DNA of 20,000 nt from an uncultured virus (IMG/VR IMGVR_UViG_3300023176_002901). Its lineage: Duplodnaviria > Heunggongvirae > Uroviricota > Caudoviricetes > Crassvirales. The position numbers and the translations under genes were made by a program. Of this stretch, positions 2,792 through 20,000 are shown piece by piece (the stretch's first letter is position 1; every line of letters starts with the position of its first letter). The notes beneath the pieces are model-generated. The model was not told the origin of the DNA, searched no databases, and worked only from the letters and a program-made list of their open reading frames with translations. The stretch lies in IMG/VR virus record IMGVR_UViG_3300023176_002901. The stretch is one strand, 5' to 3'.

Positions 2792-5227
2792 TTATCTGGG
2801 CTCAAATTCTGCAAAGTCAAAGCCATCCAACGAGTCTTCGTTTGATTCAAAGTTGATGGAGGGCAATGTTTTTTGGCGCTGCTCTATGAGCTTAGACTGC
2901 TGAGTATTTTGTCGGTCAATTCTCTTGGCCTTCTCGTCCTCTTTCATCTTGTCTCTCTCCGTCAAGGCCCCAACCTCTACGCCCTTAATGCGCATCTGGT
3001 ATGAGAACTCTTCGGCCATCAAAGACTTCTTCAGTTCTGCCTCATTGCGCATCTTTTCAATTTCGAATGCAATCTCGGCCTGCTTAACCTGCATCTTAGA
3101 TTGAGACTCGAGTTGTATTTTTTGAGCAGCAATCTCAGCAGCCATCTGTTGTGACTGCATATTTATCTGAGCCTGAGCTTGTTGCTTCTGCATCTCTGCC
3201 ATTTGCATTTGCTCAAAGTTCTTAGCCCTCTTAACCTTTAGAAGCTGGTTTGCAAGCTTCAAGTTTTTAACCTCGCGAATATCAATGGCATCCTCAAGAC
3301 TAATATCTCCCTTCGACAATGCCATCTGGATATTTGCTTCAAGCTGCGCCTTCTGCTCTTCGTCTGGAGAAACCTCAATAAAGATTCCGAAGTCGTAAAT
3401 GTAGAGGTCTTTAATCTGGTCAAGTATTCTAACGTTGTACTTGCCAATCTGCATCGTGAACTCTTCCTTAAAGTCTGAGTACTGCAAGATGTCCGCAACA
3501 CGACAAGACAAAGCCTCGGCGAGCGAGCGAGTCATAAATAGGCTCCCCTCCAAAATGTGTCGGGTCGCCGTATTTGAGTTAAGAGCAGCAAGCTTCTGCA
3601 CGCCAACGAGAGCGTTGGGGTCTGGTGTAGAACCATCCCTCGCTTCATTAAGGCCAGTCACCGCACGAATCATATCCATGTAGTGGTTGTAATTCCCAAT
3701 GAGAGCCGCCATCTTGGATTGCCCAGAGCTGGCTGTCAACTGCTGAATCGGTACGCGAGCATTATTAAACTCACCATCCTGAGTATAGGAACGACCAACC
3801 ACGCTACCGGTTTGGAAATATAGGCGTAGTGCGTCCTCTGGGTTGTATGCTGCCCCCGTTCCGAGGTCAACCTCATTCAGGCCATCTGCATCAATGAAGA
3901 CGCCATCAGGGACAACCTTCGATATTACTTGCTGTAGCTTGAGGTGTGTGAGCTGAATCAAGTCAGCGAATGGAATCATTCTTCTAACCAAAGACTCGAT
4001 GTTACCCTTGTACATTCTGGGAGCAACAGCAATATAATTTGGAAGGGCATTCTGCGTAGCTGACTTTGGACGAACCATGTTCTCCATCATCTGCCACTTG
4101 AGCATGATGTTTGTTCCCATCACCATGACGCCCTCATACCATACATCGATGGTTTTTTCCACCTTTTCGAACTTTCCGTCCTGCATCATTTCTACAGGTG
4201 GGTTAAAGGTGTCATCCTTCTCAATGACTCTAGAGCCGCCGGTTTCGTTTATCTTTTTCTTGTAGACAAACTTCTTAGTTGTCTTGTAATTGAAATACAA
4301 CAACGTTGCCGTGTCCTTGTAGAAGATGTCGTTCTCATAGAACTGTGCAACATTATAATAATCATACCAGCTTTGGCTATACTGAGAAATTTCTTCAAGG
4401 TCCTTGTTTGTGAGCGATGGGTCAATCTTAATTAATTCCGTAATTGGAAGTGTTTTAATCTCTCCCCAGTAGAAGCAATCTCTAAAGTATGGGTCCTCTG
4501 TATAACTATAAACCACATTAGCTGGGTCTACATAGCTAACTCTAACGCCATCCCCCGCAAGGAACTCGTGCTTGATTGTTCCAACGCCAATGGTTGCAAT
4601 GTCATAGTCCACCCGTCTGCGTGTGTCATCGTAATGATTTTCCGCAAGCAATGTGTTGATGGCTTCCTCTTCAGCTATCTCAATGGATGGCTTATACTTT
4701 AACTGCATGTGCAGCTTAAGCTCGTCCTCATCTCTGGGGAGTTCCATTGGGTTAACATTAAATGGATTGATGCCAAACGCTTCAGACATTTTTGTCAAAG
4801 CATCTTTCGCAACCATATCGCCTTCTACGACATCTTGATATTGGTTTCTCTTCTCTGCCGATACCGCATCCTGAGCGTATGCTTTTACCGTGAATAGTCT
4901 GTCAGACATACCGTTTACAACGATGTCTACAAACTTTGGAAGGATTGGAACTGGCGTCCAGTCTAGGTTCAAATAACTAAGGTCACCGTCAATAGCCAGC
5001 TCATTTTTGTATTTAGCAACCGACTGCTCTCCCCTAGCATATAGTCTCAAGCGATTGAAGTCTCTCCACTGGTTGTAGTACCTACAGCCGTTTCCATCTT
5101 TACGGAACCATTCGTATTGAATGGCTTGGCCTATCTGTAGGCCGAACTCATCCGTGGCTTTCTCTGAATCAGAAACAAATTGACTTGGAAACCCAGTGGC
5201 TGATATATTTACTTTAACTTCTTTCAT
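2792..5227 (-). CDS. Portal protein (putative)
   Basis: 811 aa directly after terminase (ATGA overlap); long Q/E/K-rich C-terminal coiled coil like the barrel of P22/crAss-type portals. Confidence 0.82.
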   Translation of the reverse strand: MKEVKVNISATGFPSQFVSDSEKATDEFGLQIGQAIQYEWFRKDGNGCRYYNQWRDFNRLRLYARGEQSVAKYKNELAIDGDLSYLNLDWTPVPILPKFVDIVVNGMSDRLFTVKAYAQDAVSAEKRNQYQDVVEGDMVAKDALTKMSEAFGINPFNVNPMELPRDEDELKLHMQLKYKPSIEIAEEEAINTLLAENHYDDTRRRVDYDIATIGVGTIKHEFLAGDGVRVSYVDPANVVYSYTEDPYFRDCFYWGEIKTLPITELIKIDPSLTNKDLEEISQYSQSWYDYYNVAQFYENDIFYKDTATLLYFNYKTTKKFVYKKKINETGGSRVIEKDDTFNPPVEMMQDGKFEKVEKTIDVWYEGVMVMGTNIMLKWQMMENMVRPKSATQNALPNYIAVAPRMYKGNIESLVRRMIPFADLIQLTHLKLQQVISKVVPDGVFIDADGLNEVDLGTGAAYNPEDALRLYFQTGSVVGRSYTQDGEFNNARVPIQQLTASSGQSKMAALIGNYNHYMDMIRAVTGLNEARDGSTPDPNALVGVQKLAALNSNTATRHILEGSLFMTRSLAEALSCRVADILQYSDFKEEFTMQIGKYNVRILDQIKDLYIYDFGIFIEVSPDEEQKAQLEANIQMALSKGDISLEDAIDIREVKNLKLANQLLKVKRAKNFEQMQMAEMQKQQAQAQINMQSQQMAAEIAAQKIQLESQSKMQVKQAEIAFEIEKMRNEAELKKSLMAEEFSYQMRIKGVEVGALTERDKMKEDEKAKRIDRQNTQQSKLIEQRQKTLPSINFESNEDSLDGFDFAEFEPR

Positions 5228-7506
5228 CTGTTGACAAGTTCACTTTGGAAGCCCTTGTTATTATATCTAGCAAAGTTAATGCTTATTTTAGTTTCCTTTT
5301 TCTCAGGCTGATATAGATGCTTTTGGTTTGCCATAATTGCCAATCCAGAACTAATCGTAGCGTCAAACTTTGTTCTATTGTTTATATCGAAGCGAGCCCA
5401 GTCCTCCAGTGTCCTGTTAAAATACATAGAGCCAACCTCCTCCGAGTCCCTATATGTGCCCTCTAAATCTAAGCCAACATATTTTTCTATATAAGACTCT
5501 ATAGCAGACGCGTGCGCCTGTTTTACCTCTTCGCTTGAGTTGGGTATACCCCCAAGTTCGCGCTCAGATTTTGATAATTTAGTGAAGTGCTTGTCAGGTC
5601 TGTTCATGCTAAAATTTCTATACCCCCTATTCTTAAAGTGATATAAAAGCCTTGGCTTGTTGTTTTCTGCCAACACGGGCATACCATAAAACACACACGC
5701 CATAAGAACATCTTCAAAAAATATTTCTGCTGTCTGCGGTCTGGCAACATACTCTAGGAAAAACTCATTAGAGGGGGCGTCGTCCATGTTGAACTTAGTC
5801 ATCCCGTGCAGAGCCCCATTAGAACCCCCGCCGCCTACTACTCCAGATATATCATAGGAGTCACAGCCAAACGAACCAATGTGTTCGTTGCCGGGGAAAC
5901 GTACTCCATTACGCATCAGTACATTGTTTTGCATTCTGGCTGATGGTATCCAGCTAACTTTAAACCTCCCCCTCGGGTCTGGAGTCCATATGACCTTCGT
6001 GTCCTTTATGCCATCCTTCCAATGAAACGAGCCAACGGTTATAAAGTGCTCTTTGATTGTGGCGTCATTAAAGTCAATCTGCTGATATATCTTGGTTAGA
6101 TTGAATATAGACTGCTTACTCTCGTCCCTGAAGGCGTGAGACTCCGTTCTGGGGAACTGACGGTAGAATTCGTTTAGCGCATCTGGGTCTGACTTTAGTG
6201 AGGCTACCTCATTTTCCCAGTAGTCAATAGCTCCTATTTTTATCATGTCCCCATCTATGCCCACAATGGGGTTATCTGGTGTCTGTAAAACAGGCATGCC
6301 GTGCTTATCTATGTACCCCTCGAAGTTCCACTCCATTGGGATGAATAGAGAATAGAGCCCACTCTTTGTCTGCCCATTCGGGCTGCGCTTTGTTGTATCC
6401 GAATCGTAATACAGTTTCTTAAAGTTATCACCGCCCTTATCCAGTGCGTTAGACGTAGAGCCCATCATGCACTTACCAATAACTTTTGAGCCCAACCGCA
6501 AACAAGTTTTAGTGACCCGCCAATTGTTAAGGATGTTGTCTGGCTTCATCCACTTACCTGATTCGTCGTGAACAAGGAGCTGTAGCTTCTCGCCGTCATA
6601 ACTGTTGTCTGCCGTATTGCGCCAGTCGATAGTAGTATTAAGGCCCTCCACATCATCCACCTCCGTGTTGGACATGTTCTTCTTGGTAATTTTAGATGCC
6701 GGTATTCTGTATGCAAGCTCTGTCTTCGGCTTGTCCATGCCATCCATAATCGGGCGAAAGAAGAACGGAAGGTTGCTGTTGATGGGAACAACCTTGTCGG
6801 TAAACATCTTTTTGGCGTCGGTACCAGTCTTTGACAGGATGCCAATCCTTGAGTCTTTTGCGACTGTTGCCATGTTCACGCACTCCGACGAGCCCATAAA
6901 TGAAAATCCAGAACGACGAATCTTCAGATAGCACATTCCAAATGCCCTAGGGTCAGCCTTAACAGCTTCCCAGAAAATAAAGAATATCCTGTTGGCCTCT
7001 CGAAAGTCTGGATTACCAACGTCAATCTTTGTCCACTGCAAGTACATATAGTGGGAGCCCGTTATATACGTCGGCTCTCCGTCATTCATAAACCAGAAAC
7101 CCTGCTCGCGTCTATCGAACTCTCCCTCAATGTAGTCTACCCATTTAGACTTGAACTCGTTTGACTTTTCGTGCCATTGGAATATGGACTTTATCTTGTT
7201 GAGTTCTGCTGGGTAATCAAACGCCTCCCAGTATTGCTCATCCGCTTTTTTGTCTCTAGCATAAACCTCCTTAGGTACCGCCGGAAGGGCGACTGCCAGA
7301 TTTGATATCAGATATATATCACCAATAGTCCCGTCCTTCGAGATGACCACCATGTCGTTCTTCTCGTCATAACCATACTGCCAAGAACGCGCCTTATTTT
7401 TTTTATTCCTTAAAGCGGTGGGTATATAGTCCGGTAGGATGTAATAGATGCTATTTTGCTCTTCGTTCTGCAAAGCCCTGCTTACTTTGAGTTGTTTGTT
7501 CACCAA
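5224..7506 (-). CDS. terL: Terminase large subunit (start uncertain: TTG 7506, GTG 7503 or TTG 7473)
   Basis: Walker A-like KIRRSGFS, Walker B LLVHDESGK, motif III GST, nuclease acidic motifs FGCDSYD and KFDATIS; upstream of portal. Confidence 0.92.
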   Translation of the reverse strand: MVNKQLKVSRALQNEEQNSIYYILPDYIPTALRNKKNKARSWQYGYDEKNDMVVISKDGTIGDIYLISNLAVALPAVPKEVYARDKKADEQYWEAFDYPAELNKIKSIFQWHEKSNEFKSKWVDYIEGEFDRREQGFWFMNDGEPTYITGSHYMYLQWTKIDVGNPDFREANRIFFIFWEAVKADPRAFGMCYLKIRRSGFSFMGSSECVNMATVAKDSRIGILSKTGTDAKKMFTDKVVPINSNLPFFFRPIMDGMDKPKTELAYRIPASKITKKNMSNTEVDDVEGLNTTIDWRNTADNSYDGEKLQLLVHDESGKWMKPDNILNNWRVTKTCLRLGSKVIGKCMMGSTSNALDKGGDNFKKLYYDSDTTKRSPNGQTKSGLYSLFIPMEWNFEGYIDKHGMPVLQTPDNPIVGIDGDMIKIGAIDYWENEVASLKSDPDALNEFYRQFPRTESHAFRDESKQSIFNLTKIYQQIDFNDATIKEHFITVGSFHWKDGIKDTKVIWTPDPRGRFKVSWIPSARMQNNVLMRNGVRFPGNEHIGSFGCDSYDISGVVGGGGSNGALHGMTKFNMDDAPSNEFFLEYVARPQTAEIFFEDVLMACVFYGMPVLAENNKPRLLYHFKNRGYRNFSMNRPDKHFTKLSKSERELGGIPNSSEEVKQAHASAIESYIEKYVGLDLEGTYRDSEEVGSMYFNRTLEDWARFDINNRTKFDATISSGLAIMANQKHLYQPEKKETKISINFARYNNKGFQSELVNR
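5271..5278 (-). promoter_or_regulatory. Possible internal -7 promoter element for portal, inside terL 3' end
   Basis: TAACTTTG matches TAnnTTTG, 43 nt upstream of the portal ATG; it is within coding sequence so may be chance. Confidence 0.4.
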
Positions 7507-7735
7507 TAGAATCTCCGCTTAACGCGGCCTTCTCTTGTTCTATTCTTGATAAAATTTCAAACGCATCAAAGATTGCCAGCTTCTTTGTTGCTGCGGCATT
7601 CTTTAGTCGGTCCGCAGCCAGCTCGCTGTCCGGGTCATCGTGAACAATGATTCCCTCCTCAGCAACCTTAATAAGCTCTTCTACAGCCCGCTGGCCAGCC
7701 CTTATGATTCGCTCTTTAATTTCATTTGAATTCAT
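7451..7735 (-). CDS. Terminase small subunit (putative), 94 aa
   Basis: Start reassigned to ATG 7735 (TAATG overlap with upstream gene); helical protein immediately upstream of and overlapping terL. Function is by position only. Confidence 0.55.
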   Translation of the reverse strand: MNSNEIKERIIRAGQRAVEELIKVAEEGIIVHDDPDSELAADRLKNAAATKKLAIFDAFEILSRIEQEKAALSGDSIGEQTTQSKQGFAERRAK

Positions 7736-8298
7736 TACAGCAAGATACAAATGTTTTTGCTGTTCATCCTATAGAGCTTTTCTCCGTCTATCTCAAACTC
7801 ATACTCCGTCCCCGGCGTATAGACCACCTCGTCACCAACTGACAGTCCCATTTGAGACAGGTCTTGAGTTATGTATTTTATACGCCCAACTAGCGGTTCC
7901 TTTGATGAGGTCTTGTGTAAGTAGTAGTCTTTCTTGTCTGATGGAGACAAAAAACAATACTTACCCATAGACTTCCACTCTTCTCCATTGTGAAACATAA
8001 AGAACTGGTCCTCGTCTACAAAAAACAAATCGCCACCAAGGAAGCTTCTTCCGCTTCGCTCTCTGCCGCGCATATCATTGTAAAACTTAAACACATTGTG
8101 GTGCACCAGCAATGTGTCACCAACCTTTATCTCTCCAGAATAATGAGCAGGAACCTCAACAACTTCAGCGAACCTATTCGATACCCTGTGGTCTTCCTTT
8201 GATGAGCTAATAATAAATTCAATTCCGCCAAAATCACGGACGTTGTCGTATCTGCGTCCGCTTACTGGCTTAACAATAAAGTAGAATGGAGAGCGCAT
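7735..8298 (-). CDS. GroES-like co-chaperonin with two tandem GroES-type domains
   Basis: Two copies of the GroES pattern: FIVKP...AEVVEVP...IKVGDTLLV and CFLSP...GRIKYI...LSVGDEVVYTPGTEYEFEIDGEKLYRMNSKNICIL (cf. GroES VKVGDxVxF...EVKIDGEEYLIMxExDILA). Confidence 0.68.
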   Translation of the reverse strand: MRSPFYFIVKPVSGRRYDNVRDFGGIEFIISSSKEDHRVSNRFAEVVEVPAHYSGEIKVGDTLLVHHNVFKFYNDMRGRERSGRSFLGGDLFFVDEDQFFMFHNGEEWKSMGKYCFLSPSDKKDYYLHKTSSKEPLVGRIKYITQDLSQMGLSVGDEVVYTPGTEYEFEIDGEKLYRMNSKNICILL

Positions 8299-8399
8299 CA
8301 GCTACCACATGAATCGCATTCGGGGTTGTCAATACTGCAAGCAGGAGTAACGGGTTCTTGTGCCAACTCTCCGAGCCAGCTGTCGAATGAATCTTTCAT
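8298..8399 (-). CDS. 33-aa acidic Cys peptide resembling the ribonucleotide reductase alpha-subunit C-terminal tail
   Basis: Not in ORF track. MKDSFDSWLGELAQEPVTPACSIDNPECDSCGS*; ATG 4 nt after upstream stop and TGATG overlap with downstream gene, filling the gap exactly. Confidence 0.8.
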   Translation of the reverse strand: MKDSFDSWLGELAQEPVTPACSIDNPECDSCGS

Positions 8400-8403
8400 G
8401 TGT

Positions 8404-8628
8404 TTAAAAATTGATGTTATACTCTATAGATATGGGCATGTTTTCATTGAACTCCTTCCAAAGAAAGACCTCATTGTCCGCTTCCACCCAAACTTTTATG
8501 CTGCCTGTTGAGCTATCTCTTTTTATCAGATGTATCTTGTGTGAGCCACCCAGAACCTCTTGCTCAACAATATAATGCATGGCGCCAGACTTATAATCGG
8601 CGCCAACCGATATCTTGCGAATGTCCAT
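8404..8628 (-). CDS. Hypothetical protein, 74 aa, beta-rich
   Basis: ATG with A/T-rich leader; tiles the operon without overlap conflicts. Confidence 0.8.
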   Translation of the reverse strand: MDIRKISVGADYKSGAMHYIVEQEVLGGSHKIHLIKRDSSTGSIKVWVEADNEVFLWKEFNENMPISIEYNINF

Positions 8629-8641
8629 TATTTAATTAAAA

Positions 8642-9655
8642 TTAAGCGTATGCTGGGAACCTATACGTCGTTCCCTCAATATTTATATCAATCCAAGCAT
8701 CGGGTTCGCCAAGAATATTTGCCGGGTCTCCATTGGTAAATACTCCAGCAACAGTAGTTGGAGCCACTTGAGCGGGCGCGCCCCCCACAGAGCCAACCTG
8801 ACCCTCAACAATATAATCCGGGGTCCAGTTCTCCCATACGGAAAGTGTGCTGTTATAGCGTAGAAGCTGACCGTTTGTAGCCGTGGCAATACGAACATTG
8901 TGAAGCTCCTCAAGCTCGTAGCCATTATCAATCTTCACATAGATTGAACCAACGGATGCGTTTGCGTTTACGACAAACCCAACAATGACCGTATGCTGTG
9001 GAGCGGTTGGTTTTACATTAGTTATGCCACCCATAACAGTGGGGGACAAATAAAGAACATCTCCATCTGCCCACGTCTCTCCCTGAAGAGCCCCCGTAGT
9101 GTTTATATCGCGCACCAATCCGGAGCTGGTAACATACCCCTCTGCATTGTTAGCTATATTCTCGGTGACAATGCCAAGTGTGTTGGCGCTGTTTGCATCT
9201 GAGTCTGCCATTGCGCGAGATACGGAGAGGCGGTTTCCCTGAGCGCCAAGAATTTTTACTACCTGATATGCGGCCTGAGTAAAGTTGACTCCCGACTTAT
9301 TGACTACGCGAGTAACCTGCTCCTGGCCAACCTGGAGAGTGACGTTACCGCCCATAAGGCGCAGGTCAACAGTTCCGTCAGTAGAGTTCCAAGCCATCTG
9401 GCCTACGTCCGAGACGGGAGTTGTACCCATAAAAGTAAGCCTGTCAAGTTCCATATCGCCATCAAGCACAACATCTTGAGTGGCAGAGTTGCCAGCATCA
9501 AGAACCTGCTGAAGGGTATTAGGAACTTCTACATAAAGGTCAGCGATGCTTTGCGCTGTGAAATTTTTTGTAGCATTGGAATCGCTTCCGTCTGTTCCAA
9601 CAACAATATCTGAACCTTGTGGGCTTACCGTAGGATATGAATCAATCTTGGCCAT
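8642..9655 (-). CDS. Virion structural/fibre-like protein
   Basis: 337 aa rich in G/T/N/V; motifs common in phage fibres and decoration proteins (TLQQVLDAGN; GDVLYLSPT; LEELHNVRI...NGQLLRYNS...WEN). Confidence 0.6.
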   Translation of the reverse strand: MAKIDSYPTVSPQGSDIVVGTDGSDSNATKNFTAQSIADLYVEVPNTLQQVLDAGNSATQDVVLDGDMELDRLTFMGTTPVSDVGQMAWNSTDGTVDLRLMGGNVTLQVGQEQVTRVVNKSGVNFTQAAYQVVKILGAQGNRLSVSRAMADSDANSANTLGIVTENIANNAEGYVTSSGLVRDINTTGALQGETWADGDVLYLSPTVMGGITNVKPTAPQHTVIVGFVVNANASVGSIYVKIDNGYELEELHNVRIATATNGQLLRYNSTLSVWENWTPDYIVEGQVGSVGGAPAQVAPTTVAGVFTNGDPANILGEPDAWIDINIEGTTYRFPAYA

Positions 9656-9677
9656 TTGAGAATCTTTACTTGAATAA

Positions 9678-9685
9678 CAAAGATA
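9678..9685 (-). promoter_or_regulatory. Bacteroidota-type -7 promoter element
   Basis: TATCTTTG in the 35-nt intergenic gap, 22 nt before ATG 9655. Confidence 0.75.
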
Positions 9686-9690
9686 CTAAA

Positions 9691-10107
9691 TTAGTTTATG
9701 ATGAATACCCGTGCTAAGTAGCGCACAAGCAGCACCAGTGCGCCACCAATAACAAGAAGCGCAAGCGCATCAAAGACTCTTTCTTTTATGCTCGTTGGCT
9801 TTTTAAGCTCGGTAGTAGTAATTGATTTCGTAACAACAATAGTGTCACTTGGGCAGTCAGCCTCTATATTGACAAAGTTGTCGCGGTATTCAATCTTTAA
9901 TTTGACGCGGTCCTGATATATAACCGTATCCTTGAACAATTCTAGTGTGTCACGAATAGTTCTCTCTTTTGTGACAATGACCGTGTCCTTCTTTACAACA
10001 ACCGTCTGCTGTATGCTTGGGTCCTTGCGTATCGCCTGCTTTAGATGCCATTGTGCTGAGCACCCATAGAGCATAAGGGTGAGGGTTGCTATAGTAAGCC
10101 ATCTCAT
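9691..10107 (-). CDS. Unimolecular spanin-like lipoprotein
   Basis: N-terminal signal with lipobox LYG-C16, beta-rich middle, C-terminal TM helix (ALALLVIGGALVLLV); ATGA-coupled to endolysin. Same topology as T1 gp11. Confidence 0.72.
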   Translation of the reverse strand: MRWLTIATLTLMLYGCSAQWHLKQAIRKDPSIQQTVVVKKDTVIVTKERTIRDTLELFKDTVIYQDRVKLKIEYRDNFVNIEADCPSDTIVVTKSITTTELKKPTSIKERVFDALALLVIGGALVLLVRYLARVFIIN

Positions 10108-10553
10108 TTATAGGGGACGTATTTAGTTTTGCCGTCTTTCTTTATAGCCTTAAGAACCTGACCGCGATTATGGCCATAGTGATAGGATACGTGCACCCAG
10201 TCGGGTTGTTTCTCGTTTCCAAATTCCCAGATGAGCTGGTCGAACTGAAGATTGTTCTTGATGTATTCAAATACTTCTTTATTGTCGTCGATGTCAATGT
10301 CCGCAGCAGCCCCATTGATTGCGCAGTGCTGAGAGGTGGTACTCCCGCCAATAGCCTTGTTGAGTTCCGGAACGCGCAGCCCGCTAGATATTCTAATAGG
10401 CCCAATGGCATCACGAAGCGGCTGGAGAACCTTGTGGCACAGCTCTACAAGATTCTCAAGCTGCTCTGGGTTTGGCGTATTGTCTATGCCTAATCTTTTT
10501 GCGGTAGAACTTTTAGTTAGCTCTGCAAGTGTGAAGTTCTCAGATAGTTTCAT
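10104..10553 (-). CDS. Endolysin, peptidase M15 family zinc peptidase
   Basis: MKLSENFTLAEL start, ISSGLR...LNKAIGG...SQH, AAAD and WVHVSY give the H/D/H zinc ligands typical of M15A-type phage lysins. Confidence 0.88.
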   Translation of the reverse strand: MKLSENFTLAELTKSSTAKRLGIDNTPNPEQLENLVELCHKVLQPLRDAIGPIRISSGLRVPELNKAIGGSTTSQHCAINGAAADIDIDDNKEVFEYIKNNLQFDQLIWEFGNEKQPDWVHVSYHYGHNRGQVLKAIKKDGKTKYVPYK

Positions 10554-10684
10554 CGTCCCTGACCTCTGTATTTCTTTTTATAGTTCCTGCTTGACTTGAG
10601 CGCGGACCCTTTCTTGCTATGCTTCTTAAGCTTTTTAGACTTGCTAACATAAGAACCTATGGTTTGAGCTTTAATCTTTGCCAT
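10550..10684 (-). CDS. 44-aa highly basic peptide
   Basis: Not in ORF track. MAKIKAQTIGSYVSKSKKLKKHSKKGSALKSSRNYKKKYRGQGR*; TAATG overlap upstream and ATGA overlap downstream. Confidence 0.82.
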   Translation of the reverse strand: MAKIKAQTIGSYVSKSKKLKKHSKKGSALKSSRNYKKKYRGQGR

Positions 10685-11007
10685 TAGTATCTGCTTACTA
10701 CGTCGTTAATCTCAGAGAAGTGCATATGAAGCTTCATATCAATGCCCGCCTCCCAGCGGTAGCGCTCTTGGCCATCGTTGAAATAGATGATGGTAGGAAC
10801 AGATTTGATATTGTATTTCTTTTTTACCTCTGGCTTAGCCTCAATGTCAATGCGGTATAGCTTTGCTCCGCTGACGCGCCCCAGGTCTTTGTATCCATTG
10901 CTCTTATTAAAACCAGCGTTAAATTCTATCACGCTCTTTCCCTCGGGCTGCTTGTGGCTTACTGCAACGGAAAACAATAAGAAAGATGCAAGCAAAAATG
11001 GTTTCAT
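10684..11007 (-). CDS. Exported thioredoxin-fold protein lacking CxxC
   Basis: Signal-peptide-like N-terminus; VIEFNAGFNKSN at the position of VVDFWAxWCxxC; RIDIE...KKYNIKSVPTIIYFNDGQE matches the thioredoxin cis-Pro region; no Cys. Confidence 0.72.
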   Translation of the reverse strand: MKPFLLASFLLFSVAVSHKQPEGKSVIEFNAGFNKSNGYKDLGRVSGAKLYRIDIEAKPEVKKKYNIKSVPTIIYFNDGQERYRWEAGIDMKLHMHFSEINDVVSRY

Positions 11008-13904: not shown

Positions 13905-15206
13905 TTATACGAAGTAGGTTACTGTTGCTCGGCAAGTCATTGTTCCCGCGCTTAAATAGGTATTTACAGCAAGACCCGAATGCGTTCCCGTTGACCCGTT
14001 ATCTGCAATAAAGTCCGAACCTGAATTAGACGCAGCCTTTTGGATTAGTGGATTACTTAAATCAATAGCAAGATTGTCAAAAAGCAATGCTGCTTCGGGG
14101 TACATATTGGCTTCGGCAGTAAAAGGAAATGCGGTTAACTGCAGCGTACCTCCCGATAGTGTACCCTTTGTGAAAACCAAATGAAAAGTGGCAGTTACTT
14201 GTCTTCCTATTTTTGTATATGTTCCTAATTGAGTTGTGTAGGATGCTTGACCACCGCCACCTGCTGCAATAAGCACAGGCGTCCAAGTCCCCTCCTCGTA
14301 GTCATCCAATGCGTTGGCTGCTGCGGTGTCCCCGTTGAAGGTTAGGCCGTTTGCCGTTGCTCGTACAATTTCATTATTGTTGACACATAAAGCCGTGTAG
14401 GAACCATTAAGGCGAAGCGGTTGGTATGAAACGGTAAGAGTAGAATTTACTCCGTGAATAGTTGATGCGCCTGAACTAAACGTACCGCCATTATCAAAGC
14501 GTATTCCGTATGTCGCTCCTGCAATTCCTGCGGTAGTACCTTCAACACCTGATTCAACATCCAATTTAATGGAAGGCGAAGTCGTGCCAATGCCTACATT
14601 GCCCGTACCACCTGCAACAACAAAAGCGGGTGTGCTAAATGTGCTTCCACCTGCCGTAGTAGATGGCGTAATTTCAAAACCATTGTTTACATTGTATTGA
14701 CGGCCTATTAAGAAGTTGTAGTTGCTTCCTATGGTTTTTAGAAATAATTTACTTCCCGCGCCCGTAGATGATTCATATAAGGTTAATGAAGTAGAAACTT
14801 CTGCTGTACCCGATACGGATAAAGTGCTTTGAGGATTACTCGTACCAATTCCCACATTACCCGTAGAGGTGATGCGCATACGCTCCGATAAAGAGCCACC
14901 ATTTGCCGTGCGAAACCAAAGGTCTGCGGCATTAGTTGCTTCACCACTATTTTGGATAGACAAGCCAAGAGATGCGCCTCCTTTGATTGCACCATTTGTA
15001 TTTTGTGATAGAACAATAACAGTTCCTGAAGAAGATGAAATGCCAGAATTTACATCAAGAGGAGCAAAAGGCAAACTCGTACCAATGCCAACATTGCCTC
15101 CTGAGCCATCCACCTTAAAGATAAGGGTCTCCTTGCCGTCATAGACATTAAAGTCCTTGAAGGTCTCCGTTGCCTCGTTATATGTCTTATGATTTATCGT
15201 AGCCAT
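13905..15206 (-). CDS. Tail fibre/receptor-binding protein
   Basis: 433 aa; three GNVGIGT repeats, ERMRITS, then NALDDYEEGTWTP and GTYTKIGRQV leading into a C-terminal beta-sandwich tip domain. Confidence 0.8.
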   Translation of the reverse strand: MATINHKTYNEATETFKDFNVYDGKETLIFKVDGSGGNVGIGTSLPFAPLDVNSGISSSSGTVIVLSQNTNGAIKGGASLGLSIQNSGEATNAADLWFRTANGGSLSERMRITSTGNVGIGTSNPQSTLSVSGTAEVSTSLTLYESSTGAGSKLFLKTIGSNYNFLIGRQYNVNNGFEITPSTTAGGSTFSTPAFVVAGGTGNVGIGTTSPSIKLDVESGVEGTTAGIAGATYGIRFDNGGTFSSGASTIHGVNSTLTVSYQPLRLNGSYTALCVNNNEIVRATANGLTFNGDTAAANALDDYEEGTWTPVLIAAGGGGQASYTTQLGTYTKIGRQVTATFHLVFTKGTLSGGTLQLTAFPFTAEANMYPEAALLFDNLAIDLSNPLIQKAASNSGSDFIADNGSTGTHSGLAVNTYLSAGTMTCRATVTYFV

Positions 15207-15210
15207 AATG

Positions 15211-15218
15211 CAAAGATA
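15211..15218 (-). promoter_or_regulatory. Bacteroidota-type -7 promoter element (probably leaderless transcript)
   Basis: TATCTTTG in a 17-nt gap, only 4 nt (CATT) before ATG 15206. Confidence 0.68.
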
Positions 15219-15223
15219 CTATT

Positions 15224-15625
15224 TTAAGGTTGGTCAATTGGAGCAGGAGGCTGGCAGTAGGCCGCGTCTGGGTTGGCCACGCAGTACGCCTCAGCATACT
15301 CCTTGTCAAGGCTGTAGCCCATTGATGACACGCCAACTGGCACAGGCCAAACGATAGCCGATTCCCACGTTGCTAATGGCTCATCGTGCCAAACAACATC
15401 CACACTAATCAAAGGAGATGTTACCTCACAAACAGGGTTCCCTTCAGCGTCTGTTCCCCATTGCTCACAAAGGTTGCCAATGTAGTAGACTACATCCACA
15501 AGGGCTTGGTTCCAGCTCTTGACTTCATTGCCGTCAGGGTCTGTGGTGGTGATTTCAATCTCAGCCTTAGCGGCCTCCCAAGCTGTTGGGTTCTTGAATC
15601 CGTATTTTCTAAAATGTTGTGCCAT
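15224..15625 (-). CDS. Acidic hypothetical protein, likely partner of the upstream spike proteins
   Basis: 133 aa, starts 1 nt after the spike paralogue stop; four Cys in two local pairs. Confidence 0.75.
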   Translation of the reverse strand: MAQHFRKYGFKNPTAWEAAKAEIEITTTDPDGNEVKSWNQALVDVVYYIGNLCEQWGTDAEGNPVCEVTSPLISVDVVWHDEPLATWESAIVWPVPVGVSSMGYSLDKEYAEAYCVANPDAAYCQPPAPIDQP

Positions 15626-15626
15626 A

Positions 15627-17300
15627 TCAGAGAGTTGTTAGTGTAATTGCGTCAGTGTCACTTATTTCTGTTGGGAAAATTAAAAATTTATTTATACTCT
15701 TTCGGAAATCAGCATTATATCCTATATACTCTAAATTTGAAGTAAATGTCAAAGAATCGCTGAACACTTGCGTTCCGTTTACATAAGCCTTTGCAGTTGT
15801 CCCGTTCCATTTTATTAGCATCTTATATTGGTTTAAAGTATTATTTGAATAAATACCATTAAAAACGCTATTTGACCTATACGCAAAACGAACACTTCCA
15901 TCAATATCGCTTGCCACTTCAATAGAATTAACAGATGGAAAGCTCGTATTGCTTCTATAATATAAGCCATCCGTTGATGCGTCTCTTGCTGTAGCTGTTG
16001 TTAATCCTCGCTCAAACTCAAGAAAAAAAGTACCAGAAGACAAAGTTGAAATACCAGATACTTCTTTATCCATAACATCAGCTCCCCTTGTTACAGCAGC
16101 ACCATAGGTTGGGATGTAGGAGGTGGCGTAGGTTACATTGTCCTCACATTGTGCTCCATAAATATAAAATGCAGGCTGACCATTTCCAACGTGATTACCA
16201 CTACCGCCGTCCGACGAAGCAATGCCTAAATAGATTCCTCCAGTAGTTGAAGTTGGATTGTGATAAATACATCTATACCAACCGTTTCCGCAATCTTCAA
16301 TAGATGTAACAACCGAACCTTGTGCCCCCCCTACAACTCCGTTCACAATGTCAAACCAAGCCGTTGGACCATTATCAATGGTGAACCACCTATTTGCAGT
16401 TCCGCCAGCCCATTTAGCATAAACACTATACACTTTATTAGAAGATGAAGCAGAAGCTCCAGTGTTAATTCTGTGGTAATTAGTGCTTGTGTCTTCTGTA
16501 TATAGATATGCATTTTCAACCCCTTGTGGAGATACTTCGGCATTTGCCGTTAAAGTACCACCAGATAAGCTCCACGCACCAAAGTATTCACTATATGCAA
16601 GCCCATTCGTCCGTTGTGGCTCCAACAGCAAAGAACCTGTACGCGGAAGGACAGGGTCAAAGTTTATACGGGGAACATTAGCTACTGGTCCTACGCTTAC
16701 TGCTGCTGTAGTGGTCTCAATGTAGTCAGTTGCTACAGTTCCTGCCTCTACTTGGAAACCCCATATCAATGCTTCGTCACCTATTATAGCTGGGTCTGGA
16801 ACTTCAACTCCACAAATTGTTGCACCTGATATTGTTGTTGTTACAGAAACTCGTTGCCAATTAGATGTTAGTGCAATAGTTGTTGGAATAGCTCCAATAC
16901 GAACCTGTGCATTCTTACCTATTGAAGAACCTATGCCCTTCATATAGCACGAAGCCGTTATAACTCCATTAAATGAGATTGATTGATAAATGTAAGGGTC
17001 AATATTAGTAGCTGTAACTTTAGTTGCGGTATTTGTTCCATCTGGCGCAGTTTCAGCATTTGCCGTATATGTTCCGTTTCTTGGAACCCAAGTGCCAATT
17101 TGGCTAAAGTCTTGGCTATATAGTGCAAGATTCGTCCGTACCTTCTCAATGTATCCATTAGGACCCACCCTCGTTGCCGTATCGTTACTACGAGTAAAGG
17201 TCAAGTCAGCACTACCCCCCGCTGGTTTGCTGGTAAAGACAGTACCTGCCTCCACCCCAGAGGGAATCATTACTAATGATGCATCAGATAAATAACTCAT
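15627..17300 (-). CDS. Spike/fibre protein with repeated beta-sandwich domains, paralogue 2
   Basis: 557 aa; FTRS...ATRV, RTNL..YS, NGWYRC, LLLEPQRTN, ATSYIPT..AAVTR motifs; C-terminal LamG/ConA-like domain (YVNGTQ). Confidence 0.75.
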   Translation of the reverse strand: MSYLSDASLVMIPSGVEAGTVFTSKPAGGSADLTFTRSNDTATRVGPNGYIEKVRTNLALYSQDFSQIGTWVPRNGTYTANAETAPDGTNTATKVTATNIDPYIYQSISFNGVITASCYMKGIGSSIGKNAQVRIGAIPTTIALTSNWQRVSVTTTISGATICGVEVPDPAIIGDEALIWGFQVEAGTVATDYIETTTAAVSVGPVANVPRINFDPVLPRTGSLLLEPQRTNGLAYSEYFGAWSLSGGTLTANAEVSPQGVENAYLYTEDTSTNYHRINTGASASSSNKVYSVYAKWAGGTANRWFTIDNGPTAWFDIVNGVVGGAQGSVVTSIEDCGNGWYRCIYHNPTSTTGGIYLGIASSDGGSGNHVGNGQPAFYIYGAQCEDNVTYATSYIPTYGAAVTRGADVMDKEVSGISTLSSGTFFLEFERGLTTATARDASTDGLYYRSNTSFPSVNSIEVASDIDGSVRFAYRSNSVFNGIYSNNTLNQYKMLIKWNGTTAKAYVNGTQVFSDSLTFTSNLEYIGYNADFRKSINKFLIFPTEISDTDAITLTTL

Positions 17301-18955
17301 CAGAGTGTGGTTAAGAGTGAGAGGTCTGCGTTGGAAAGGCGGGTCTGGAATAGGAGGGCTTGCTTAAAGTATTGCGAGTACTCATACCCAGTAACCGTGT
17401 AACTATTTAGTTTAATTTGCGACATTGAAGATGGGATTGCACCGCTTGTATCCGTTCCTTCTTGCGCTCCGTTTACATACAAAACAAAATCGTTTTCTTT
17501 ATAAGCAAATGCTACTTTTAAAGTGGCCCCAGTTTCGTAAATAGATGAACTATCAAAATTCACTTGTGTTGCGCCATTGTACACAAAAGCGTTTACTCTA
17601 CCCGAAGAAGTTAAAATAAGTTCCATAAAATTGGTACCCGAACCCAATAAGGCAAATCTTCCCCCTCTTCGTGCCTCTACCTCTACAAACACAGTCCCTT
17701 CCGTCTGCCCAATCAAAGAAGAAACGCCCGTTTTGTACGCCTCATCAACCCCCCGTGTCACCGCAGCCGAAAGGGTGGGGATGTACGAGGTGGCGTAGGC
17801 TCCGACCTCCGCTTGCAATCCCCAAATCGTCCGAACTGAACCAGCAACGGCATCTAATGTTGTACCATTAGCAGACAATGTAGCATAATATCCAACCGAA
17901 CACAAAGTATTAGAACCCGTATCCGTAGCCGTTGAGCATATGCGCCAATATGTCCCGTAATCCTCTACTTTGGTGGTAGCGGTCAAAGTACTATCAGCAT
18001 AAGTTACCGTTCCATTTACGGCATCTACAATTCCATATACGAGTTTGTAAGTGCCTCCTTGAAAATACATTGTGAATCCACCGTAAGCCGTTTCGCTCGT
18101 TTCTTTCTTTACAAACACGGAAATTGTAAGCGTTGAATTTGCAGAAAGAGAAATGTTTTGGGTTACTGTTTTATATGTACCCGCAACGGTAGATTGAATA
18201 CCATCAGCACCTCCATAGCCATCGGGGGCCGTTGCGATGTTTGTGGTAATAGTTGGCGAACCACCTTTTGACCAAGCCGCGTTGTCTATTGATTCGCTGA
18301 ATTTCAAGAGGTTCGTCCGTTGTGGCTCAAGCAAAAGAGAAGGGCTATTAGCCCCTCCCGAATAGTCAAGGCGAGGGATGTTAGCAAGAGGTCCTACAGA
18401 TACAGCAGAGGTGGTTGTTTCAATGTAGTCGGTAGGTACGCCCGTTTCCATCTGAGCGCCCCATACCAGTATGCCGTCGGTTCCGTTTGACGTAACAGTA
18501 ACTACGCTATCGGAATCGGTTGGATAAATGTGCATATACCCCGTACCTCCGTTGCCTAAATCGGTGAAACCAATACGCCACCATCCGTTACCCGCGTCGG
18601 TTGCAAATCTACCAGTAACATTTGCCCCGCTTCCGTTTGTGATTGCCCCAGTGGTTAGGTTTACCCACATTGCGGTACCACTGCCTCCGTTAAGTGTGTA
18701 AAGCGCCGCAAAATTTTTGCCCGCCGCTTTGACGTAAACGCTTTGCCCGTACTCGACGTTGATAGTAGTAATGATTGCTTGAATAGCGGCAACGATTGAG
18801 CCGTTAATCGACGGATACAAAAGGTCGGCGGTAGTTGTTCCGTCGGGCGCGGTTCCAGCGTTGGCACTTATGGTTGCCCCCGCTTGCAATGCCCAAGCGC
18901 TACCTTGATTTAATTGCTCGCTATACTTAAAGAGGTTCGTCCGCACCTTCTCAAT
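16111..18955. repeat. Four pairs of short direct repeats shared by the two spike paralogues
   Basis: 17131-17150/18936-18955 (19/20 identical), 16717-16727/18420-18430 (11/11), 16606-16622/18312-18328 (17/17), 16111-16132/17778-17799 (21/22). Confidence 0.85.
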
Positions 18956-19108
18956 AAACCCATCAGGGCCTACGCGGGTGGCAGTATCATTAGAACGTGA
19001 GAATGTTAAATCGGCCGATCCGTCATCAGGCACCGAGCTATATACCTTCTGGTCTTTGTAACCAGATGGAACCATAACAACCGATGCATCTTCATAGAAG
19101 TTACTCAT
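17300..19108 (-). CDS. Spike/fibre protein with repeated beta-sandwich domains, paralogue 1
   Basis: 602 aa with the same architecture as 15627-17300 (PRLDY, LLLEPQRTNL, NGWWRI, ATSYIPT, LYVNGAQ); TGATG-coupled to it. Confidence 0.75.
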   Translation of the reverse strand: MSNFYEDASVVMVPSGYKDQKVYSSVPDDGSADLTFSRSNDTATRVGPDGFIEKVRTNLFKYSEQLNQGSAWALQAGATISANAGTAPDGTTTADLLYPSINGSIVAAIQAIITTINVEYGQSVYVKAAGKNFAALYTLNGGSGTAMWVNLTTGAITNGSGANVTGRFATDAGNGWWRIGFTDLGNGGTGYMHIYPTDSDSVVTVTSNGTDGILVWGAQMETGVPTDYIETTTSAVSVGPLANIPRLDYSGGANSPSLLLEPQRTNLLKFSESIDNAAWSKGGSPTITTNIATAPDGYGGADGIQSTVAGTYKTVTQNISLSANSTLTISVFVKKETSETAYGGFTMYFQGGTYKLVYGIVDAVNGTVTYADSTLTATTKVEDYGTYWRICSTATDTGSNTLCSVGYYATLSANGTTLDAVAGSVRTIWGLQAEVGAYATSYIPTLSAAVTRGVDEAYKTGVSSLIGQTEGTVFVEVEARRGGRFALLGSGTNFMELILTSSGRVNAFVYNGATQVNFDSSSIYETGATLKVAFAYKENDFVLYVNGAQEGTDTSGAIPSSMSQIKLNSYTVTGYEYSQYFKQALLFQTRLSNADLSLLTTL

Positions 19109-19110
19109 CT

Positions 19111-20000
19111 TTATTCTGCCTTTAGAATTGTCACCGCACTTTCGTATCCAAGCAAGCCCTCAAACGTACCTCCGTCAGCAATGACGCGGTCGTAGTAGTC
19201 TTGTGTTTCAGGGAAGATGGCAATGGGCAACTTAACAACCAAGCCCCCTACTGAAACCGTTACATAGTCAGCAGCACCTACAAAGACACCACCCAGCCCT
19301 ACGTTACCAAGCTTCCAAGCAGAAGCAGTAGTTGTTTCGGGAGCAGCCGTTTGGATGTCTCCGCTTACAGTAAGCTTAGCCGTAGATGGGGCCTGACCAA
19401 TACCAACCGTAGTTCCGTCATCTTGAATCTGTGAGTCAGTGATGGTGTCCGTATCGCTCCACTTAGAGATGTAGTTAGCCGTACCTGTTCCGTCAACACC
19501 TGAAATCTCAGAAAGTGTAACCCAGTCAGTACCCGTGCCAGTAGACGATAAAATCTGACCTGATGTTCCAGCTGCGTTGTTAGAGTCGTAGATAGCGCCT
19601 GTGATTCGTGCGCTACCATCTATGTGTAACGTCTGAGTAGGCGAAGTCGTACCAATACCGACATTACCTTCTACAATCAATCCATCAGTAGGGGCAGTAT
19701 TACCAAAATACGAAGTACCAATGGATGCATTTCGCAATATTGATTTGTAAGAACTCCCTCCCTCTACTACAAGTGCAAATCCACCTGACGCACCGTCTAT
19801 GCGCAAACCCTCTCCACCTGTGGCTTGCTCTACCTCTAATTTAGCCGCAGGACTACTTGTACCAATGCCGACCTTACCAGAGTTGGCGAATGTCATAACA
19901 TCAAGACCTTGTCGTCCAATAGTCAAAGTTCCGCTTGAACCAATTGAGTCCAAATACCACATTCGGTTAGTGTAGGTTGGGTCGCTTGAATCAAAAGCGA
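19111..20000 (-). CDS. Tail fibre-like protein (5'-truncated by window edge)
   Basis: Frame stays open from 19962 to the window edge (AFDSSDPTYTNR-MWY...); GKVGIGTSSP, GNVGIGTTSP, GTSGQILSSTG and GTANYISKW fibre motifs. Confidence 0.8.
   Translation of the reverse strand, partial: AFDSSDPTYTNRMWYLDSIGSSGTLTIGRQGLDVMTFANSGKVGIGTSSPAAKLEVEQATGGEGLRIDGASGGFALVVEGGSSYKSILRNASIGTSYFGNTAPTDGLIVEGNVGIGTTSPTQTLHIDGSARITGAIYDSNNAAGTSGQILSSTGTGTDWVTLSEISGVDGTGTANYISKWSDTDTITDSQIQDDGTTVGIGQAPSTAKLTVSGDIQTAAPETTTASAWKLGNVGLGGVFVGAADYVTVSVGGLVVKLPIAIFPETQDYYDRVIADGGTFEGLLGYESAVTILKAE

Follow-up and report, generated by a model that had tools for sequence, protein, structure and literature searches.

Ribonucleotide reductase (RNR) determines the supply of the building blocks of DNA, and each of its turnovers requires re-reduction via the tail; in the Escherichia coli enzyme this re-reduction is rate-limiting. 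According to PMC9669993 and bioRxiv 10.1101/2022.04.23.489257, class I RNRs re-reduce the active-site disulfide by means of a disordered C-terminal tail with a double cysteine, and PMC6382339 describes the CX2C motif as the mediator that links thioredoxin or glutaredoxin to the catalytic cysteine pair. Here, we analysed a stretch of 20,000 nt (the window) of an uncultured crassvirus (IMG/VR record IMGVR_UViG_3300023176_002901), in which a minus-strand open reading frame (ORF) of only 33 residues (8298..8399, TGA included) ends like the large subunit of class Ia RNR, NrdA. The ORF is almost certainly a real gene and its product a specific, free-standing copy of the NrdA tail.

With class Ia NrdA the peptide shares C-S-[IL]-[DE]-N-P-x(1,2)-C-x-x-C plus one or two residues at the extreme C-terminus, an alignable pre-tail stretch (PV.P.AC) and a tail that was modelled as flexible. 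Unlike NrdA, it has neither the catalytic barrel nor the ATP cone, is 33 and not ~800 residues long, and possesses a separate start codon as well as an N-terminal helix, the latter seen in none of 30 Bacteroidota NrdA C-termini. Regulators of the Sml1/Spd1 type from yeast are, according to PMC6382339, also small and largely unstructured and act on the large subunit at the step of tail regeneration, an action that is only proposed for the peptide. In bacteria the peptide is encoded, as are Sml1 and Spd1, by a free-standing gene beside an intact RNR. Sml1/Spd1-type proteins are eukaryotic and, unlike the peptide, are not known to have a copy of the tail sequence or a CxxC shuttle. Thioredoxin, glutaredoxin and NrdH share with the peptide a CxxC dithiol from which electrons would flow towards RNR, but the peptide lacks the thioredoxin fold (no PF00085 or PF00462 match; one helix plus coil in the AlphaFold2 (AF2) model) and copies the acceptor, the tail, instead of these donors. 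PDB entry 1QFN is presumably a complex of glutaredoxin with an RNR tail peptide; the code is listed in PMC10897161. The glutaredoxin-NrdB fusion reported for Facklamia ignava indicates that the redox relay of RNR has parts which can be rearranged in modular fashion, and the peptide would be a further case. No relation in sequence is claimed to CP12, a different-pathway protein that the peptide resembles as a small cysteine-pair protein of host and phage. CP12 is small and disordered, is found in cyanobacteria and cyanophages and serves, as an auxiliary gene of phages, to retune an enzyme of the host by a known mode of action. A sequence-only reading of the window, which had taken the ORF for a mimic of the RNR redox-shuttle tail, knew of no described system like it; indeed, no description was found in the full-text literature (most subscription papers and all preprint supplements being beyond reach), Pfam, PHROGs, NCBIfam or the ESM Atlas. 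Overall, that reading is partly supported.

The 33-residue ORF and its match to the NrdA tail

The product of the ORF is MKDSFDSWLGELAQEPVTPACSIDNPECDSCGS, followed by a TGA stop, and three parts can be distinguished, all on the minus strand. Residues 2-13 (KDSFDSWLGELA; 8361..8396) form, by AF2 and conservation, an acidic amphipathic helix with the motif F-x-x-[WF]-[LIV]-x-x-[LM], present in the window peptide as SFDSWLGEL. Residues 14-20 (QEPVTPA; 8340..8360) are a proline-rich linker that can be aligned to the NrdA pre-tail in the PDB and NCBIfam alignments, and residues 21-33 (CSIDNPECDSCGS; 8301..8339) are the copy of the class Ia NrdA redox tail, with three cysteines, at the extreme C-terminus. 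The ATG lies 4 nt beyond the TAA of an upstream 74-aa gene (8404..8628, minus strand), the TAA and the spacer ACAC occupying 8400..8406, and the TGA overlaps the start of a downstream gene for a GroES-like co-chaperonin of 187 aa (7735..8298, minus strand; phrog_13932, E 4e-20; Cpn10 below its cut-off) in the sequence TGATG (8296..8300); both junctions were read directly from the minus strand. The earlier observation of an ORF in this place is thus confirmed, and its recurrence with synonymous change goes far beyond chance.

The 33-aa ORF had no Pfam match and the catalytic barrel of NrdA (Ribonuc_red_lgC, PF02867) is not present, but the peptide does have the disordered C-terminal tail with a cysteine pair that is found in class Ia NrdA. 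The sole match among 177,635 distinct PDB sequences was to residues 945-962 of 963 of the RNR alpha chain 5im3_A, where PAPVPQACSIDNPDCEAC is aligned with QEPVTPACSIDNPECDSC and the linker part QEPVTPAC with PAPVPQAC; owing to the shortness of the query, the E-value is a weak 0.34. A tblastn search of 50,697 GenBank phage records matched only annotated nrdA 3' ends, in two records, and in NCBIfam members of the peptide family matched nothing but the NrdA model NF005544, with scores far under the cut-off of the model and only over its final ~26 positions (939-964, aligned with residues 13-38 of the members). All matches being NrdA ends, the resemblance is specific for the RNR tail and goes beyond generic CxxC peptides, as had been proposed from the sequence.

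Bacterial genomes were scanned for C-S-I-D-N-P-[DE]-C-[DE]-x-C, which gave at least 120 loci; among the 120 matches listed, 119 are the C-termini of long NrdA ORFs with the signature …YYLR…. These end in CQ (111), CP (1), CGS (2), CGA (2) or CSA (3), and the seven with two further residues come from six Bacteroidota and one Limnohabitans metagenome-assembled genome (MAG; L250, CGS). Among these matches, CQ is the Pseudomonadota type of ending and CGS, CGA or CSA the Bacteroidota type. One NrdA of a Cyclobacteriaceae member (813 aa) ends with ACSIDNPDCEACGS, which is identical to the tails of many peptides of the family. In a sample of 30 Bacteroidota NrdA proteins the endings were CGS (17), CSG (4), CSS (3), CSA (1) and CQ (5); 20 tails had three cysteines and 10 had two, as in GPEDCEMCGS. 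The NrdA tail consensus used earlier is sound in this respect: Bacteroidota tails end C-x6/7-C-x2-C-G-S, with CGS in 17 of 30.

A family of free-standing tail peptides

A scan of viral contigs for the tail motif followed by a TRR stop returned at least 120 loci. Among the matches listed, motif and stop were present in 119, all of them short ORFs of 26-99 codons from stop to stop (four cut by the locus end), and none was the end of a long NrdA; the remaining locus, L124, failed the stop filter. The 119 ORFs yield 85 distinct peptides. Alignment A1 starts with the row of the window ORF, and its tail is invariant because the search pattern demanded this. The part upstream, which the pattern did not cover, is conserved all the same, with the start codon at a distance of 30-70 codons and F5 kept in at least 90% of the rows.

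A profile search with A1 against 1.84 billion representative proteins gave 124 clusters at E<=1e-3, 24 of them at E<=1e-10, and 117 of the 124 have a size of at most 130 aa. Nearly all of these small proteins (114 of 117) end in C-x(5-8)-C-x2-C plus one or two residues, which are GS in 101, SG in 7, Q in 4 and GA in 2; the spacing between the first and the second cysteine is 6 in 80, 7 in 33 and 8 in one of them. A looser helix motif, [FWYL]-x-x-[FWY]-[LIVMT]-x-x-[LMI], was found in 91 of the 114, and approximately three (P0116, P0118, P0120) resemble fragments of NrdA ends. Five of the seven long matches are spurious, being without the tail, another is a genuine NrdA of 807 aa ending …STCSIDNPDCEACGA, and the last is P0084. 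The window ORF lies within the family as it was delimited, i.e. an ORF of 29-128 aa with C-x6/7-C-x2-C, one or two further residues and a stop. P0084 (205 aa) has an amidase-like N-terminal part (by eye; NCBIfam gave no family), followed by the helix motif and a variant tail, …CSIDDDSCDSCGA; either the two parts are genuinely fused or the protein was called across a stop by read-through.

The AF2 model of A1 contained a helix at residues 2-13, with a block mean of the predicted local distance difference test of 90 for residues 1-10, and a tail of low confidence (block means of 66 and 56), i.e. modelled as flexible. The short amphipathic leader SFDSWLGEL that had been noticed before is thus seen in the model and, as a motif, in 91 of the 114 matches. 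Comparison of the window ORF with locus L003 revealed four synonymous and one non-synonymous codon difference, a comparison that is not circular because L003 was found through the neighbouring gene. The difference from L004 in the tail amounts to five synonymous and three conservative non-synonymous changes, and the 13 tail codons of L085 differ by six synonymous and no non-synonymous changes. These counts indicate that selection acts at the protein level.

The peptide family is large and so far unnamed. There is no Pfam, PHROG or NCBIfam family for the peptide, its members are annotated only as "hypothetical protein", and the ESM Atlas contained only unnamed clusters of 33-46 aa. With the 41-aa member P0008 as query of a protein search, 40 small, unnamed similar proteins were found. 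The sole longer protein matched by P0008, P0126, was rejected as a fusion since a frameshift joins the peptide with a u-spanin. Some viral members have an extra cysteine-rich N-terminal segment such as CGDRNCVCCKGEATCPQCPEHCQC (L086:2504-2716, L108:2504-2707, L184:160-339, L194:154-339). P0079, P0085 and P0111 (42-52 aa) end with ...ACS(I/L)D(N/Q)PDCEACQ, as do NrdA tails of the proteobacterial type, and have an acidic (E/D)DFL motif upstream; by these ends, free tails may exist for Proteobacteria too.

Chromosomal homologues in Flavobacteriales

The sole short ORF among the 120 bacterial loci listed belongs to a Flavobacteriales MAG (G042), where it is located on a contig of 399 kb next to genes for a glucosaminidase-LysM protein and S-adenosylhomocysteine hydrolase and near genes for alanyl-tRNA synthetase, DnaG and MscS. 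It lies 9.5 kb from nrdA-nrdB, is preceded by a spacer of ~190 nt and is followed, after the stop, by a GC hairpin with a T-run. The G042 variant was found on 845 contigs and goes by the NCBI name "hypothetical protein [Schleiferiaceae bacterium]". When 401 genomes from the whole phylum were searched with A1, a free ORF was found in G042 only and the other 10 matches were NrdA ends, but in 301 sampled genomes of the order to which G042 belongs, 12 had a free ORF (E 1e-13 to 1e-19; genome sizes 1.2-2.3 Mb). The peptide, which had been regarded as encoded by the phage, is therefore not restricted to phages.

The 12 bacterial peptides are 40-50 aa long and read …(E/D)DSF(S/D)SWL(N/G)DLE(D/E)K(E/D)QPQACS(I/V)D(N/D)P(D/E)CEACGS; one of the chromosomal homologues is 61% identical to the window peptide over all 33 residues without a gap. 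Their genes are monocistronic, each with a hairpin and T-run after it (by eye), and have as neighbours housekeeping genes, among them those for DNA polymerase III delta (holA; 5), CTP synthase (pyrG; 4), a TonB-dependent receptor (6) and MsrB (2). Boxes of the form GTT[ACG]ATAA[CG] are located ~83-93 and 126-138 nt before the ATG (L360, L373-L383); nine of the 12 genes have both, ~44 nt apart, and three have one. In two of the 12 genomes a TTGTTAATAAC box also precedes nrdB (L359, L387), and the boxes upstream of the peptide genes and of nrdB may be the site of a shared regulator.

The genomes that encode the peptide have retained the tail of their own NrdA, …EEQLACSI(E/D)NPDDC(V/E/I)(A/S/T)CGS, which was intact in all 11 peptide-bearing genomes that were checked. 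In G042 itself the 3' end of nrdA (L359:1300-1420) encodes the tail ACSIDNPDECIACGS behind an A-run and in a frame other than that of the body; the frameshift could be real or stem from an error of assembly. A split NrdA, in which the free peptide replaces a lost tail, was ruled out, the tails being intact in 11 of 11 genomes and out of frame in G042. Therefore, the peptide comes in addition to the tail of the enzyme and not as its replacement. In these bacteria the cysteine spacing is C-x6-C in the peptide versus C-x7-C in NrdA; therefore, the peptide is not a copy of the NrdA tail of the same genome.

Genomic position in phages

The GroES-like gene downstream of the peptide ORF served as anchor for syntenic relatives, and 80 viral loci with this gene were kept out of 597 confirmed relatives. 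In 69 of the 80 the 74-aa gene directly adjoins the GroES-like gene and the peptide is absent; four (L001-L004) have the three-cysteine peptide, four have a different ORF of 60 aa in the same slot and three have another insert. Because 69 of these 80 relatives lack it, the peptide is an accessory insertion in a hot spot. The conservation in syntenic relatives that was to be expected from the earlier reading was thus found in part: ORF and three cysteines are kept in the carriers, but most relatives do not have the gene.

The 60-aa ORFs in the slot (L038:2812-2994, L065:2311-2493, also L042 and L043) end with ...KPTD(T/S)(H/N)IDCIGCGS and a stop and have two cysteines; their CxxCGS end is like that of the two-cysteine NrdA tails of flavobacteria. 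At least two N-terminal modules occur on the same tail, the aromatic helix and an I-H-x-[IL]-x-M-K type (P0065, L179, P0123 and the 60-aa ORFs of L038 and L065). Since the 60-aa ORFs share this N-terminal module with three-cysteine members, the sequences suggest one modular superfamily with the tail as its constant working part.

A different setting was found for 80 pattern-derived viral loci that have flanks. An endolysin gene (Peptidase_M15_3 or Amidase_2) is located at most 1.3 kb upstream of the peptide in 52, a u-spanin homologue or phrog_3427 "holin" at most 300 nt downstream in 43, and 39 loci have both. Therefore, the usual home of the peptide is the lysis cassette of ~30-kb phages. 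The lineage of the window has the same endolysin and spanin genes, and the peptide sits 1.3 kb further on. The head-assembly operon in which the ORF had been seen is thus not its fixed setting: most syntenic relatives lack it there, and elsewhere it usually belongs to the lysis cassette.

RNR and redox genes in phages with the peptide

PF02867 was found in none of 29 peptide-bearing viral records, i.e. 28 records, five of them at least 90% complete, and G001, the nearest record to the window (44 kb). It is also absent from three fragment records examined beside G001 (0 of 4). That the window has no RNR gene, as had been stated before, was confirmed with Pfam, and the same applies to G001. The absence of RNR is a trait of the lineage and not a demonstrated anticorrelation, because relatives without the peptide share it. 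Glutaredoxin was likewise found in none of the 29 records, and matches to the thioredoxin family were found in four at E<=0.01, one of them above the cut-off, all to the second half of the Thioredoxin model only.

The window itself encodes, at 10684-11007 on the minus strand, a protein of 107 aa with a thioredoxin fold (PF00085, 24.7 bits, second half of the model), a hydrophobic N-terminal segment and no CxxC. In other phages, homologues of this protein (cluster 27; L142, L093, L138) accompany the endolysin. As a redox partner of the peptide it was rejected, being secreted-looking and without CxxC. Further, the helix was considered as a mimic of the NrdB tail, but the one Cyclobacteriaceae NrdB compared ends with KFSLNEDF, which is not convincingly like SFDSWLGEL.

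Proposed function and rival explanations

A residue-for-residue copy of the tail at a free C-terminus is meaningful only to the partners of the tail, the oxidised active site of NrdA and its reductant, and going by this likeness the peptide probably acts on RNR or on its reductant. Both cysteines of the CxxC motif are kept almost everywhere, which suggests a redox substrate that cycles and not a dead-end trap. In the reducing cytoplasm, the only specific oxidant of a reduced free tail would be oxidised NrdA, and the carriage of a host-type gene by phages would fit a gain in the supply of deoxynucleoside triphosphates (dNTPs). The partners of the tail, the conserved CxxC and oxidised NrdA as the only specific oxidant together favour an extra shuttle. 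The peptide is a small cytoplasmic protein composed of an acidic amphipathic helix, a proline-rich linker and a flexible copy of the NrdA redox tail, and we propose, at not quite an even chance, that it joins the RNR re-reduction relay in trans. The N-terminal helix would serve as docking element and the dithiol tail would reach the sites of the NrdA tail, i.e. the oxidised active-site cysteine pair and a thioredoxin-type reductant. The peptide would thus be a diffusible extra electron shuttle in the order NrdA(S-S) -> peptide -> thioredoxin. Turnover of the host RNR would be raised to the benefit of phages without an RNR of their own, by an auxiliary metabolic gene that is shared with some marine Flavobacteriales. 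For such a positive shuttle in particular our expectation is tentative and stays clearly below an even chance.

Several points weigh against an additional shuttle. The gene is optional, as its absence from 69 of 80 syntenic relatives shows, and a late, lysis-linked site is not an obvious one for a gene of nucleotide supply. In peptide-bearing bacteria the spacing of the cysteines in the peptide (C-x6-C) is not that of NrdA (C-x7-C), and the invariance of the tail in A1 is imposed by the search pattern. RNR is also absent from five complete relatives that do not have the peptide, and the host of the window phage is inferred from relatives only. Finally, the tail of NrdA itself is tethered and thus present at high local concentration, so that it is questionable how much flux a free tail would add.

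The main rival is a competitive inhibitor or decoy: a free tail, docked by its helix, would fill the tail-access site on NrdA or tie up thioredoxin, and re-reduction of RNR would be slowed in a Sml1-like manner or reducing power diverted. It is unlikely in our estimate, though it can call on the same identity with the NrdA tail and on a peptide that is small, acidic and largely flexible, and there is a precedent, since Sml1 blocks R1 by competing at the regeneration site (PMC6382339, citing Zhang et al. 2007). Besides, the chromosomal copies have a promoter region and a terminator of their own, as regulator genes might, and the late position in lysis cassettes does not point to a role in early DNA synthesis. 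However, phages that have no RNR rely on the enzyme of the host, the inhibition of which would be of no obvious benefit. A trap would also be expected to lose its resolving cysteine, but both CxxC cysteines are found in 114 of the 117 small matches, and a reduced peptide cannot hold thioredoxin. If instead the tail is a bait that recruits thioredoxin or glutaredoxin of the host to another process of phage or cell, the helix would bind some other partner; the modular build, with at least two N-terminal modules on the same tail and cysteine-rich N-terminal segments in some members, would suit such an adaptor. No conserved neighbour suggests itself as that partner, the neighbours vary between lineages, and we consider a recruiting role improbable.

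The lysis cassettes could also point to a metal- or redox-active peptide that belongs to lysis, for example one that buffers zinc for, or restrains, a Zn-dependent endolysin, its likeness to NrdA being incidental. Three cysteines and acidic residues could bind metal, endolysin and u-spanin or "holin" genes are frequent upstream (52 of 80) and downstream (43 of 80), and P0084 combines an amidase-like part with a variant tail. Such a function leaves the residue-for-residue match with NrdA at the extreme C-terminus unexplained, the window copy and the 12 bacterial copies are located outside lysis cassettes, and P0126 demonstrates that an apparent fusion can be a frameshift artefact; it is as improbable as a recruiting role, and both are lesser rivals. 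The shortness of the ORF, the lack of a Pfam, PHROGs or NCBIfam family and the superficial similarity of leader and cysteine-rich core to a ribosomally synthesised and post-translationally modified peptide (RiPP) might finally argue that the ORF is a functionless relic of the 3' end of an nrdA gene, arose by chance or encodes a RiPP precursor. We regard these as very unlikely: the N-terminal part is unlike NrdA and independently conserved, more than 100 clusters keep size, start and stop, synonymous change dominates and the gene is found in several unrelated contexts. For a RiPP, no modifying enzyme was seen among the neighbours, which are structural, chaperonin-like or lysis genes, and the tail, i.e. 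the "core", is conserved while the leader varies. The usual RiPP precursor has a conserved leader and a variable core.

Taken further, and at clearly less than an even chance, a diffusible "tail in trans" of 30-50 residues and without a fold would represent a novel type of regulator or redox carrier that serves class Ia RNR. It would work beside the intact enzyme in marine Flavobacteriales of the Schleiferiaceae type and would have been taken up by many RNR-less marine phages for control of dNTP synthesis in the host, docking helices and tail types (three-cysteine, two-cysteine) being swapped to match the hosts. If the peptide acts in trans, it would be the first small protein of bacteria or phages known at the step of RNR re-reduction and, at ~100 nt, a very cheap way for phages without RNR to adjust that of the host. 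With 114 tail-bearing clusters at 50% identity behind the annotation "hypothetical protein", the family is an abundant one; it adds a candidate class to the auxiliary metabolic genes of phages and offers the RNR field a natural reagent for the question of how the tail reaches active site and reductant.

Host range, transcripts and surrounding genes

Named relatives of the large terminase were phages of Flavobacterium (68), Cellulophaga (15), Tenacibaculum (2) and Maribacter (1) in 86 of 87 matched records, a flavobacterial host range that is consistent with the -CGS ending of the peptide. Runs labelled as salt-marsh metagenome contain the window stretch, and a contig of 395 nt from an RNA library corresponds to 8119-8513 with zero differences and bridges the peptide ORF and both of its neighbours; it does not prove transcription because DNA carry-over is possible. 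Rfam gave no match at E<=1 in 7000..10000.

The window represents the late region of the phage and every sizeable gene is located on the minus strand, among them those for the portal (2792-5227), the large terminase (5224-7506), the M15 endolysin (10104-10553) and the tail proteins (13905-19962). Directly after the endolysin, a protein of 138 aa is encoded (9691-10107, minus strand), which has a lipobox-like sequence at the N-terminus (…LMLYGC) and a membrane helix at the C-terminus and resembles a unimolecular spanin; in other phages, homologues of this protein (cluster 3) are usually found after the peptide gene. Two neighbouring paralogous tail proteins (15627-17300 and 17300-19108, minus strand) both match phrog_5939, the second with a weak match to Laminin_G_3 in addition.

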